A stretch of 49,384 bases of DNA. Source: an uncultured Clostridia bacterium. Lineage in GTDB: Bacteria > Bacillota > Clostridia > Oscillospirales > CAG-272. Location: positions 1-49,384 of the forward strand of contig CANTEM010000001.1 of assembly GCA_947652805.1 (NCBI GenBank). Reading direction: 5' to 3'. A program made the translations under genes and the position numbers. Shown here one piece after another: positions 2,359 through 38,937 of this stretch. The notes below the pieces were generated by a model. It was not told the DNA's origin and did no database searches. It saw only the letters and a list, made by a program, of their open reading frames with translations. The first letter of the stretch is position 1. Each line of letters opens with the position of its first letter.

Positions 2359-2510
2359 AAAGCCTCCCTTGTGTAAAGGGAGGTGGCTTGCCGTAAGGCA
2401 AGGCGGAGGGATTGTTATGCGATCATTTTGGATGATCTGCAAATCGGCAGTATTACTTAGACAATCCCTCACCCGCTTCGCGGGAGCTCCCTTTACACAA
2501 GGGAGGCTTT
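2359..2510. repeat. Nested-palindrome intergenic repeat, full copy 1 (between mnmE and rny)
   Basis: Outer arms AAAGCCTCCCTTGTGTAAAGGGAG (2359-2382) and the exact complement CTCCCTTTACACAAGGGAGGCTTT (about 2487-2510). Inner arms GAGGGATTGT (2406-2415) and ACAATCCCTC (2461-2470). Conserved 45-nt core at 2416-2460. Sub-hairpins CTTGCC-GTAA-GGCAAG and CCCGC-TTC-GCGGG. A degenerate solo arm lies at 2326-2344. Confidence 0.85.
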
Positions 2511-11765: not shown

Positions 11766-11860
11766 AGGCTCCCCCAGCAGGAGTTCGTAAAGCGAATCTG
11801 GCGATTCGCACTTACTTCCATAGCCCCCCCTTTTGCACAAGGGAGCCTTACATAGCTTGT
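11766..11860. repeat. Repeat-family modules inside the mreD-mrdA intergenic gap
   Basis: GGCTCCCCCAGCAGGAG module, hairpin GCGAATC-TGGC-GATTCGC, then the arm motif CCCCCCCTTTTGCACAAGGGAGCCTTA (about 11823-11849). The motifs are the same as in the full copies. Confidence 0.7.
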
Positions 11861-20368: not shown

Positions 20369-20662
20369 GGCTCCCCCCAGCAAAGCACCACCAAACTATA
20401 TCAGCTCCCCAGCAATTTTAATCAATATAAAAAGGCTCCCGTGTGAGGATCCACTGCGTGGCTCCATAGGGAGCTGTCGCGATAGCGACTGAGGGATTGT
20501 CCTTCTATCGTTTTGGATAATCTGCAAATCAGCAGTCTCCCAAAACAATCCCTCCGTCACGGCAAAGCCGTGCCACCTCCCTTTGCACAAGGGAGGCATA
20601 GGTGCGTAGTTTGTCGCGACAGTTCCCTAGGATCAAGCGGCTCCAGCACAAGGGAGCCTTAT
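20369..20662. repeat. Composite repeat block including full copy 2 of the nested palindrome
   Basis: Modules in order: GGCTCCCCCCAGCAAAG (20369-20385); CCCCAGCAATTTTAATCAATATAAAAAGGCTCCC (20407-20440); a left arm interrupted by an insertion; sub-hairpin GTCGC-GATA-GCGAC; inner arms at 20491-20500 and 20545-20554; core at 20501-20544; sub-hairpin CACGGC-AAA-GCCGTG; right arm CCTCCCTTTGCACAAGGGAGGC; and an extra solo arm CACAAGGGAGCCTTA at about 20647-20661. Confidence 0.85.
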
Positions 20663-20702
20663 ATAATCTGCACAAACTTACATTGAAAGGACAGGTATAA
20701 AC

Positions 20703-21678: not shown

Positions 21679-22251
21679 GTGCCGATTTTTGAATATGAGA
21701 CAGAGGAAAAGGAACCCTGTGAGGGGCTTGCTGTAATTATAGAAGTGGAAAGTCATCAGCGGGACATAGGTGGTGAAAGTCTGTTCAGCGGCGACACGGA
21801 AGCCTGTGATTGCGGTGACATGGAGGAAGAAGCCACCCCCTACGGGCAGGACGGCGGCGTGTATACCCTTGTCAGTGAGGGGACGCTGTCCGTTCAGGAT
21901 GGGTTGATGCAGCTGACCTATGTGGAAACGATCGGGGAAGAGGAAGACGCCGCACCTACAAAGGTGTGTATTGCTTTTCCAAAGGAAAGCGGCAGTCATG
22001 TTACAGTCAGCCGCAGCGGAGATATGAATACTGTTTTTTCAGTAGAACCTGGTGTACGGCAGTACAGCACCTACGAAACGCCTTTCGGGCAGGTGGATCT
22101 CTGTGTGATTGGGAAGAAAGTCGAGAATCATATTGGAGAAACCGGCGGTACCCTGCGGTTGGAATATGCAGTGGAGCTGCGGGGAATGACCACCCAGCGT
22201 ACAAAAATGATGATTCGTGTGCGTCCTGAAAATAGGGAAACACAATCGTAG
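21679..22251 (+). CDS. DUF1934 (YwiB-like) beta-barrel protein, acidic N-terminal half
   Basis: 190 aa, GTG start. Pattern LTYVE...V.I...G....V.R.G......F..G....YETPFG...L......L.......GG.L.L.Y.L resembles DUF1934. Assigned from memory of the family profile, not verified. Confidence 0.5.
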   Translation: MPIFEYETEEKEPCEGLAVIIEVESHQRDIGGESLFSGDTEACDCGDMEEEATPYGQDGGVYTLVSEGTLSVQDGLMQLTYVETIGEEEDAAPTKVCIAFPKESGSHVTVSRSGDMNTVFSVEPGVRQYSTYETPFGQVDLCVIGKKVENHIGETGGTLRLEYAVELRGMTTQRTKMMIRVRPENRETQS

Positions 22252-22277
22252 AAAGGCTCCCTTGTGTAAAGTGGGAG
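22252..22277. repeat. Solo repeat arm hairpin between DUF1934 and holA
   Basis: AAAGGCTCCCTTGTGTAAAGTGGGAG, the same arm motif as the full copies, placed directly after the stop codon. Confidence 0.7.
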
Positions 22278-26477: not shown

Positions 26478-26612
26478 AAGGGCTCCTTTGTGCTATTGCG
26501 CACCATTCTTTAAGCCTCCCTTGGGGGGATCTGCGGAGCTCAGACTGAATTAGGTCCCCTTGTGCAAATCGCCACAATTAAAAGCCTCCCTTTGCACAAG
26601 GGAGCCTTAAGA
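26478..26612. repeat. Degenerate repeat block between ygiQ-like gene and sfsA
   Basis: Four arm motifs: AGGGCTCCTTTGTGC, AAGCCTCCCTTGGGGGG, GGTCCCCTTGTGCAAA and the self-pairing AAAGCCTCCCTTTGCACAAGGGAGCCTTA. No inner arms or core. Confidence 0.7.
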
Positions 26613-28934: not shown

Positions 28935-29190
28935 GGTTCCCCAGCAATTTTAACCAATATAAAAAGGCTCCCTGGGGGAGCTGGGCAGCACACCAATATA
29001 AGAAAGGCTCCCTTGTGTAAAGGGAGCTGTCGCGAAGCGACTGAGGGATTGTCTCGTTAAGTTGCCGATTTGTAGATTATTCAAAATGATAGCATAACAA
29101 TCCCTCCGAGTTTTGCTACGCAAAACCCACCCCCCTTTGCACAAGGGGGGCTTTTTGTTTGGTTGCCTCCTCGCAAGGGAGCCTTTTTGG
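28935..29190. repeat. Composite repeat block including full copy 3 (core inverted)
   Basis: CCCCAGCAATTTTAACCAATATAAAAAGGCTCCC (28939-28972). Left arm AAAGGCTCCCTTGTGTAAAGGGAG (about 29004-29027). Sub-hairpin GTCGC-GAA-GCGAC. Inner arms at 29043-29052 and 29097-29106. Core at 29053-29096 in the reverse orientation. Sub-hairpin GTTTTGC-TAC-GCAAAAC. Right arm at 29127-29152, then an additional arm at 29166-29186. Confidence 0.85.
29130..29160 (+). terminator. Intrinsic terminator formed by a repeat arm, downstream of the HEPN-CBS gene
   Basis: CCCCCCTT-TGCAC-AAGGGGGG (8-bp stem) immediately followed by CTTTTTGTTT. Confidence 0.6.
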
Positions 29191-38240: not shown

Positions 38241-38455
38241 AAAAGCCCCCCTTGTGCTACACCAACTTAAGCCTCCCTTGTGTAAAGGGAGCTGGCTCCG
38301 CAGAGCGGAGACTGAGGGATTGTCCTTACTATCATTTTGAATCATCTTCAAATCGGCAGTTCACGCAAACAATCCCTCCGAGTTTTGCTGCGCAAAACCC
38401 ACCTCCCTTTACACAAGGGAGGCTTAAGTTGGTGTTGCATAAGGGAGCCTTTCTT
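38241..38455. repeat. Nested-palindrome repeat, full copy 4 (best preserved) plus flanking solo arms
   Basis: Perfect 32-nt inverted repeat at 38260-38291 and 38403-38434. Sub-hairpins CTCCGC-AGA-GCGGAG and GTTTTGC-TGC-GCAAAAC. Inner arms at 38314-38323 and 38369-38378, core at 38324-38368. Solo arms at 38243-38258 and 38441-38455. Confidence 0.9.
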
Positions 38456-38626: not shown

Positions 38627-38937
38627 GCTTGATGTGCGATGAAACGGAAGGTTGCCGCCCTTTTTGCTACAGAGGACGGGGAATTTCCGTGGAGTATGTC
38701 CGTTTTGAAAACGGGCGAAGCGAACGCGAGCGCAGGCGGGCAGTCGATGTGTGTAAGACTGACCTGCGGATCTCTGCACTGCTCCGGCAGGGCGGAATGT
38801 GTCCGGATGAAAAGTACGGCGGATTTGTGGTTGCACCGCCGGAGTGCTTTTTGATCCGGTTTCCTTCAGGAGATCCTGGAAACGCCCGGGAGCGTGTTCG
38901 TCGCCTCGGCAAGTAAAAAAATTTAGGAGGCAAAACA
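38627..38937 (+). promoter_or_regulatory. Long GC-rich 5' leader of the S10 operon with a terminator-like element
   Basis: About 310 nt lie between the predicted TSS and the rpsJ GTG. Stems: CGGCGG (38817-38822) with CCGCCG (38836-38841), and an overlapping alternative GCACT (38776-38780) with AGTGC (38843-38847) followed by TTTTT (38848-38852). A further hairpin GGTTTCC...GGAAAC lies at about 38858-38882. Confidence 0.4.

Follow-up and report, generated by a model that had tools for sequence, protein, structure and literature searches.

About one in five copies of an intergenic repeat that is very common in gut Oscillospirales carries its central segment back to front relative to its own flanking arms, most likely as a result of slow inversion between short inverted repeats and not of a programmed switch. 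We analysed a 49,384-nucleotide stretch of an uncultured Clostridia genome (contig CANTEM010000001.1; here called the window), a chromosome segment of 52% G+C in which housekeeping genes are accompanied by an S10 ribosomal-protein leader. A repeat of approximately 150 nt is present in it four times, and an exact inner inverted repeat, GAGGGATTGT / ACAATCCCTC, is common to all four copies (Table 1). No such pair arose by chance in 100 shuffles. The flip is real, and it is reproducible across a large family.

Positions 29004-29152 (copy 3) are one copy of this nested-palindromic intergenic repeat of about 150 nt. Each copy consists of five parts: two outer hairpins, the first CTCCCTT-N5-AAGGGAG and the second its exact reverse complement; inside these, two short arm hairpins; and, between the arms, the inner stem, whose loop is the core. 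The inner repeats of copy 3 were found exactly at the positions given in the initial annotation of this DNA. As a single strand, copy 3 is predicted to form a four-way junction (cloverleaf), with a z-score against shuffled sequences of -7.3 as DNA and -6.5 as RNA. In the predicted fold the 3′ half of the left outer hairpin also pairs with the right outer hairpin, closing the cloverleaf with an outer stem, AAAGGGAG / CTCCCTTT, that is lengthened by the terminator-like hairpins. The inner stem is 10 bp long and its loop is the core of 44-45 nt, for which folding predictions gave no consistent structure when it was taken alone. These predictions suggest that the stem may form in vivo, as the initial annotation had asserted outright. 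Six terminator-like sites were found around copy 3, compared with 0.7 expected, the outer hairpins being terminator-like on both strands. A search for promoter-like sites found none in copy 3, its core included, or in the surrounding sequence. As the outer and inner stems are palindromic they have no orientation, and the arms and core alone carry it.

Table 1. Positions of the repeat copies, their parts and related features (window coordinates unless an L number is given)
Feature	Position	Strand	Remarks
Copy 1	2360-2510	+	A arm left, B arm right; core 2416-2460; minority (flipped) configuration
Copy 1 inner repeats	2406-2415 and 2461-2470		
Copy 2	20434-20596	-	B arm left, A arm right; core 20501-20544; majority configuration
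Copy 2 inner repeats	20491-20500 and 20545-20554		
Copy 3 left outer hairpin, GCTCCCTT-GTGTA-AAGGGAGC	29007-29027	.	minus-strand terminator-like
Copy 3 B-type arm, T-GTCGC-GAA-GCGAC-T	29028-29042	+	from arm typing; 22/24 identities with copy 2 left arm
Copy 3 inner inverted repeat, left half GAGGGATTGT	29043-29052	.	
Copy 3 core, 44 nt, loop of the inner stem	29053-29096	-	minority orientation relative to its own A/B arms
Copy 3 inner inverted repeat, right half ACAATCCCTC	29097-29106	.	
Copy 3 A-type arm, reverse reading CG-A-GTTTTGC-TAC-GCAAAAC-CCA	29107-29129	+	23/24 identities with copy 4 right arm
Copy 3 right outer hairpin CCCCCCTT-TGCAC-AAGGGGGG, then T run	29130-29150	.	plus-strand terminator-like
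Copy 3 GCGAAGC / GCGNAGC motif	29029-29041		in the B-type arm
Copy 3 junctions AAAGGGAGGTGG / CCACCTCCCTTT	29020-29031 and 29127-29138		same junctions in all copies
Copy 4	38265-38425	-	B arm left, A arm right; core 38324-38368; majority configuration
Copy 4 inner repeats	38314-38323 and 38369-38378		
Copy 4 extended palindrome	38242-38452		54-nt arms, 91% complementary
S10-Clostridia ribosomal leader	38630-38718		
Solitary outer-hairpin motifs	11825-11845, 26586-26604, 28967-28981, 29167-29181; also 20646-20676, 22241-22275		terminator-like on both strands
Site lacking the L157 block	15147/15148		about 20 nt of intergenic DNA upstream of maf
L157 block	L157 830-1309		about 490 nt; at least 6 hairpin modules and a full element
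Short-loop relatives at the copy-3 locus	L118 2040-2130, L128 1780-1860, L131 1260-1340		inner stem slightly degenerate, ACAACCCCTC
Small ORFs between element pairs	L016 5132-5308, L042 888-1064, L070 75-227, L141, L162		50-58 aa

The outer-hairpin motif CTCCCTT-loop-AAGGGAG and its variants also stand alone in other intergenic regions of the window (Table 1). This motif seems to be the REP-like basic unit from which the composite element was built. In copy 4 the palindrome extends outward beyond the element proper and ends approximately 180 nt upstream of the S10-Clostridia leader, a divergent-promoter context that is rare for the family.

The arms are of two types, distinguished by their junctions with the stems. 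Type A reads GGGAGG-TGG-hairpin-CG and type B reads GGGAGC-T-hairpin-[AG][CG]T, each followed by GAGGG of the inner stem. Among the matches listed, 127 elements from public genomes were typed in this way; the two independent junction markers agreed on 99 of 100 left arms and 108 of 109 right arms, and exactly one A arm and one B arm were present in 102 of the 127 elements. The arms therefore provide an orientation marker internal to each copy.

The core of copy 3 had been described as reversed relative to the other three, and this was confirmed. Its reverse complement aligns with cores 1, 2 and 4 at 35/45, 30/44 and 35/45 identities, with scores of 24, 16 and 21, compared with a maximum of 9 in 5000 shuffles. 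On the same strand its identity to other window cores is 25/45 and its scores are at chance level. The accompanying claim, that the flanking hairpins of copy 3 keep the left and right identity seen in the other copies, was correct for its left arm, which matches that of copy 2, and for its right arm, which matches that of copy 4. It was wrong for copy 1, in which an A-type arm (GGTGG-hairpin-CG) is on the left and a B-type arm on the right, opposite to copies 2-4. Only the segment between the inner repeats has turned, as had been proposed: the ends of the core turn with it, and the arms retain their junction bases, CG and [AG][CG]T. The switch point is always inside the 10-bp inverted repeat, and re-inverted flipped cores align end to end with majority cores, which places the end points of the flip within the 10-bp stems.

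Written with their arms, copy 1 is A-core(+)-B′, copies 2 and 4 are B-core(+)-A′, and copy 3 is B-core(-)-A′. Copy 3 is thus the mirror image, as a whole element, of the copy 1 configuration. Since the arms of copy 1 are swapped, it shares with copy 3 a core that is flipped with respect to the element's own arms; copies 2 and 4 are unflipped. A reading of the four window copies as split 3:1 was dropped after arm typing; the split is 2:2.

The core family of the window was enlarged to 101 copies by a targeted metagenome scan. Of these, 72 had the majority configuration, 20 were flipped and 9 were irregular, about 5 of the irregular ones having two like arms. The ratio of majority to flipped copies (72:20, or 78:22) is not 1:1 (binomial p = 5e-8), and each configuration occurred about equally in the two genomic orientations (37 and 35 for the majority, 11 and 9 for flipped copies). 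Orientation calls for the cores were consistent on all 508 pairwise edges, with large score margins. The window genome has flipped copies, as does each of its three sister MAGs (CANPFW, CASTST and CATLAS). A second core family also holds a flipped member, L041 in the JAZSFJ family; most small core families have one configuration in all copies.

The nearest core relative was a majority copy for 13 of 19 flipped copies, and on a neighbour-joining core tree a rough parsimony count gave approximately 12 changes of state. Flipped states are somewhat clustered on this tree (P = 0.001 against shuffled states). Four flipped copies of similar sequence (L134, L139, L148 and L014) lie at different loci, and L137, at another site in another genome, has arms identical to those of copy 3, so that some flipped copies have been inherited or copied.

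Copies with two like arms (A/A or B/B) are rare, approximately 5 of 97 in the window core family, unlike the outcome of random shuffling. Their near absence fits inversion, which conserves one arm of each type, and not free shuffling of modules.

Pattern scans of Oscillospirales MAGs and metagenomes yielded more than 180 elements, and an exact-pattern scan of one genome per species yielded at least 115 loci. Among the matches listed, nearly all host genomes were Oscillospirales MAGs, assigned to Oscillospiraceae, Acutalibacteraceae, Faecousia, Vescimonas and many unnamed Clostridia. The scaffold is conserved and the core is lineage-specific, with at least 12 unrelated core families of 38-52 nt. 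Unrelated cores on the same scaffold were seen in L019, L036, L003, L018, L027, L037, L059, L091 and others, their hosts including Faecousia, Vescimonas, Acutalibacteraceae and ruminant-gut MAGs. In the arm hairpins it is structure that is conserved, not sequence: there are approximately 65 distinct sequences per arm type, and a perfect stem of at least 5 bp was present in about 74% of arms compared with 5% of shuffles. Arm lengths were too variable to align, and hairpin statistics were therefore used in place of a covariance model of the scaffold.

On either arm the loops are mostly GNA or GNRA when followed inward, and it is invariably the GNA strand that runs toward the element's centre. 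The motifs GCGAAGC and GCGNAGC, which we take to form DNA mini-hairpins of unusual stability, recur in many arms. Presumably the A-arm junction AAAGGGAGGTGG resembles a strong Shine-Dalgarno sequence, and its complement CCACCTCCCTTT the anti-Shine-Dalgarno end of 16S rRNA.

The family is apparently undescribed to date. Rfam 15 gave no match at gathering thresholds anywhere in the window, and permissive Rfam scans of copies 3 and 4 gave chance-level noise (E ≥ 0.5). Full-text literature searches with the inner-repeat sequence returned unrelated primers only, and nothing relevant was found in searches for repeat families of Oscillospiraceae or Ruminococcaceae.

The elements are found mainly at the 3′ ends of genes, lying between convergent rather than divergent genes by 21 to 2 and 15 to 1 in two tallies. 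Neither scaffold nor core showed an orientation bias relative to neighbouring co-directional genes (13 vs 10, 16 vs 12 and 19 vs 11). The family is built as a mosaic, in which arm variants are freely recombined and blocks of hairpin modules are gained and lost. It also has two traits of MITEs, namely terminal inverted repeats (the outer hairpins are exact) and presence/absence polymorphism: L120 lacks an element, and a site that is empty in the window is filled in L157 (Table 1). No target-site duplication was evident in this one filled/empty comparison, in which the insert is the 490-nt multi-module block. Palindromes at gene 3′ ends, with a mosaic structure and no preferred orientation, point to a REP/BIME-like or MITE-like element and not to a directional RNA gene or a switch.

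In sister genomes, paired elements can enclose a small ORF of 50-58 aa, one of which contains ARTIRFTESLFEQLDRLAYKNDVSFNSLVLQCCKYALEHYEE. The ORFs in L016, L042 and L070 had no Pfam match, and the window has none of this kind. Short repeats of 150-230 nt are also common to many element flanks. Metagenome contigs repeatedly stop within the element, either in the B arm or in the first few bases of the core (L117, L127, L129, L130 and L132), which makes the repeat a common cause of contig breaks in these genomes.

About a dozen loci were matched between related genomes through long flanking homology. The state was the same at seven, the whole element was inverted in place at four, and the configuration had changed at two. 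The orthologues of window copy 2 (L169:2424) and copy 4 (L156:5223) had the same state as in the window. Inversion of the whole element is clearest between L020 and L056, where the flanks are collinear with 94% and 86% identity and a 165-nt segment comprising spacer, hairpin, both arms and core is reversed, with 98-99% identity, between AAAGGGGGGTG and CCACCYCCCTTT. Whole-element inversion was also observed in L053/L168, L099/L158 and L167/L180. The reversed elements of these three pairs are 77-86% identical, about the divergence of neutral DNA, and each pair has kept the same two arms, as would be expected of old in-place inversions.

The two changes of configuration are between window copy 1 and L056, and between L016:5371 and L070:286; arm sequences differ in both. 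Across three species the copy 1 locus shows three of the four possible states, L020 and L056 having the two majority states. No pair with the same locus, the same arms and near-identical sequence that differed by a core flip alone was found among the matched loci. Arm hairpins can be unrelated at orthologous loci even though the flanks are 90-92% identical, as in L016:5371 vs L070:286, L050:7265 vs L075:807, and window copy 1 vs L020/L056. Two pairs of near-identical strains had the same state within each pair; ongoing switching is unproven, and these strains showed no sign of it.

The locus of copy 3 was followed through the adjoining CBS-domain gene. A look-up of the exact protein returned an identical strain, L116, an independent assembly in which copy 3 is identical, and L117, a contig that breaks inside the element. 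Seven CBS homologues with 73-90% identity were then examined. Every relative with a CBS identity of 78-88% keeps the scaffold in the orientation of copy 3, B arm to the left. In the relatives at 78-80% (L118, L128 and L131) the loop of the inner stem is only 8-12 nt long, and the relative at 75% (L120) has no element at this locus; in L127 and L132 the contigs stop in the B arm or 5 nt into the core. The presence of the scaffold with a loop of 8-12 nt indicates that the 44-nt core has been gained or lost at this locus, and not merely flipped.

We put at roughly 60% the probability that the minority core orientation arose by inversion at a hairpin or short inverted repeat, through template switching or short-homology recombination. 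The loop would have turned between the two halves of the inner repeat, leaving copies 1 and 3 in the minority orientation, either by a template switch during replication or by short-homology recombination on a hairpin or cruciform. The same process acting at the outer repeat would invert whole elements. Such flips would be rare evolutionary events, some of them later inherited or copied, with no programmed switch involved. Copy 3 itself would probably have flipped in place rather than descending from a copy already flipped. Inversion of the hairpin loop by template switching was one of two origins suggested in the initial annotation, and much of what was found agrees with it: two core orientations on an asymmetric scaffold, ends within the 10-bp repeat, one A and one B arm in nearly every element, and in-place inversion of whole elements at four orthologous loci. 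Arms have also been replaced by unrelated hairpins at orthologous loci, so that modular exchange operates as well. The 78:22 bias also counts against this mechanism, as a neutral flip at equilibrium would be expected to give 50:50.

The main rival to inversion in place is ectopic conversion, in which the stems serve as homology anchors for conversion or repeated insertion from an inversely oriented donor; alternatively, copy 3 may descend from a flipped progenitor. Both stems being palindromic, a donor in the opposite orientation can paste core or arms in reverse, and because arms are exchanged between copies, conversion of this kind could give the same result as a flip. We regard this as a possible but not a probable origin of the minority cores in general, and as a serious alternative for copy 3 especially. 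The unrelated arms within closely similar flanks, the short-looped relatives at the copy-3 locus, the L157 block where the window has none, and the occurrence of similar flipped copies at different loci, L137 with its copy-3 arms among them, all speak for exchange between copies. So does the pairing of a single arm variant, for example GGGTTTTGCGCAGCAAAACTCG, with many partner arms across genomes. Even the L020/L056 inversion can be read in this way, as the inverted segment has 2 differences in 165 nt compared with approximately 5% in the immediate flanks. Free shuffling, however, should yield many A/A and B/B copies, and few were seen. The three older reversed pairs have kept their arm pairs at a divergence of 77-86% identity. 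Anchors of 10 bp are, moreover, short for RecA-dependent conversion.

An improbable alternative to inversion by replication or recombination errors is that the A/B-asymmetric cloverleaf is selected for its structure, as a 3′-UTR RNA or as single-stranded DNA, the loop being an exchangeable lineage-specific module and the nested inversions being made by a hairpin-specific enzyme of the HUH/Y1 or integron-integrase type. It is the at least 12 core families on one scaffold, together with core-less versions at the same locus, that lead to the loop being read as an exchangeable module. If this were correct, the repeat would be a new kind of mobile or switchable element and not passive junk subject to replication errors.

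Site-specific inversion, the other origin suggested initially, would make the repeat a programmed switch, with a tyrosine or serine recombinase frequently flipping the core or the whole element and so changing the expression of neighbouring genes. Perfect 10-bp inverted repeats do bound the flipped segment, and both orientations were present in every genome examined. Correia elements have been proposed to vary expression through inversion (PMC10969869). Against such a switch, the core measures only 44-45 bp between its 10-bp repeats, and the region contains no promoter-like site. To our knowledge a segment of this size with 10-bp repeats is too short for synapsis by known invertases. Nor was the linked recombinase found for which a search had been advised: Pfam scans of 30 ORFs spanning 0.5-38.2 kb returned no recombinase or transposase and housekeeping families only, and the window beyond 38.2 kb, which opens with the S10 leader, is taken to be a ribosomal-protein operon. 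The elements lie at gene 3′ ends (15-21 convergent vs 1-2 divergent) in no preferred orientation relative to genes, they number tens per genome, and the near-identical strains of both pairs share the same state. We therefore consider a programmed switch highly improbable, and a dedicated recombinase very unlikely.

An assembly artefact, or a chance resemblance within a quasi-palindromic core, is scarcely credible: the core is weakly self-complementary (the same-strand identity of 25/45 given above) and assemblies often break within the element, but assemblers work with k-mers far longer than 10 bp and the core with both arms fits within single reads, copy 3 is identical in the independent assembly L116, and the orientation calls are consistent on 508/508 edges with wide score margins.

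The anatomy is thus given of an intergenic repeat that is very common in gut Oscillospirales, absent from Rfam, and a breaker of metagenome assemblies. With tens of copies per genome and the A/B arms as an internal marker of orientation, the family serves as a natural record, kept in many copies, of inversion between short inverted repeats, and rates of inversion at the 10-bp inner repeat and at the outer repeat of approximately 12-24 bp could be read from comparative genomics or deep sequencing. Inversion of this kind would extend to bacterial chromosomes a process known mainly from chloroplasts, rRNA genes and reporter assays. In practice, flips mimic clustered substitutions in intergenic alignments and can mislead strain typing, and screens of the PhaseFinder type would flag them even though regulatory switches are improbable here.

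Among known repeats the closest in appearance are the REP and BIME sequences of enterobacteria and pseudomonads, reportedly described by Gilson in 1991 and Bachellier in 1999, with RAYT said to have been treated by Nunvar in 2010 and Ton-Hoang in 2012. Like the Clostridia repeat, they are G+C-rich imperfect palindromes in many copies, intergenic and mostly at gene 3′ ends or between convergent genes, with terminator-like hairpins; both are mosaics of a few hairpin modules in alternating orientation, and both are gained and lost as clusters or blocks. The two are unrelated in sequence, and the Clostridia repeat differs in its fixed cloverleaf with two arm types, a 10-bp inner stem and a lineage-specific loop of 38-52 nt.

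Correia elements (CREE/NEMIS) of Neisseria offer a second comparison, for which in-place inversion is reported (PMC10969869, citing Elbeyioglu 2017 and Siddique 2011). They are likewise intergenic, approximately 100-200 bp long, with terminal inverted repeats, sequence subtypes and inversion in place; they also have promoters, an IHF site and TA target duplications and lie mostly upstream of genes. By contrast, the Clostridia elements are located at 3′ ends and lack a promoter-like site, and the single site that was compared showed no clear duplication; an inner invertible loop and arm hairpins are further differences. Invertons such as fimS, hin and promoters of the PhaseFinder type share with the Clostridia repeat a segment known in two orientations between inverted repeats. 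The Clostridia segment differs in being about 10 times too short, without a promoter, with no recombinase found nearby, present in many copies, and without sign of mixing within strains.

The preferred reading, inversion at a hairpin or short inverted repeat, has its precedents elsewhere. Template switching has been described for the inversion of hairpin loops in rRNA genes (PMC8794818), for inversion of the spacer between inverted repeats in yeast (PMC8604942) and in work on quasipalindromes in E. coli (PMC7202029). These cases share with ours both the proposed mechanism and the footprint, in which the stem halves stay intact and the stretch between them becomes its exact reverse complement; in the Clostridia repeat, too, the inverted stretch is the reverse complement, is unchanged in length and ends within paired inverted repeats. 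The documented loops are mostly 4-8 nt, whereas the Clostridia loop is 44-45 nt and the outer event spans approximately 130-165 nt, and in the Clostridia case we infer the mechanism from its footprint.

A further parallel is with small inversions in chloroplast genomes, in which 4-50 bp are inverted between repeats of 11-24 bp (PMC12371153 and PMC12928735, where Kelchner and Wendel 1996 and Kim and Lee 2005 are summarised). In these, a spacer inverts between short repeats that can form a stem-loop, recurrently and homoplasiously, with its length preserved and without a dedicated enzyme; in size, the 44-nt core and its 10-bp stem are comparable. The Clostridia repeat differs in belonging to a bacterial chromosome, in being a multi-copy family, and in having two nested levels, the inner loop and the whole element. 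With a multi-copy target, the same event can be counted across approximately 100 paralogues. The phenomenon is a bacterial, multi-copy, two-level case of a known class of mutation.
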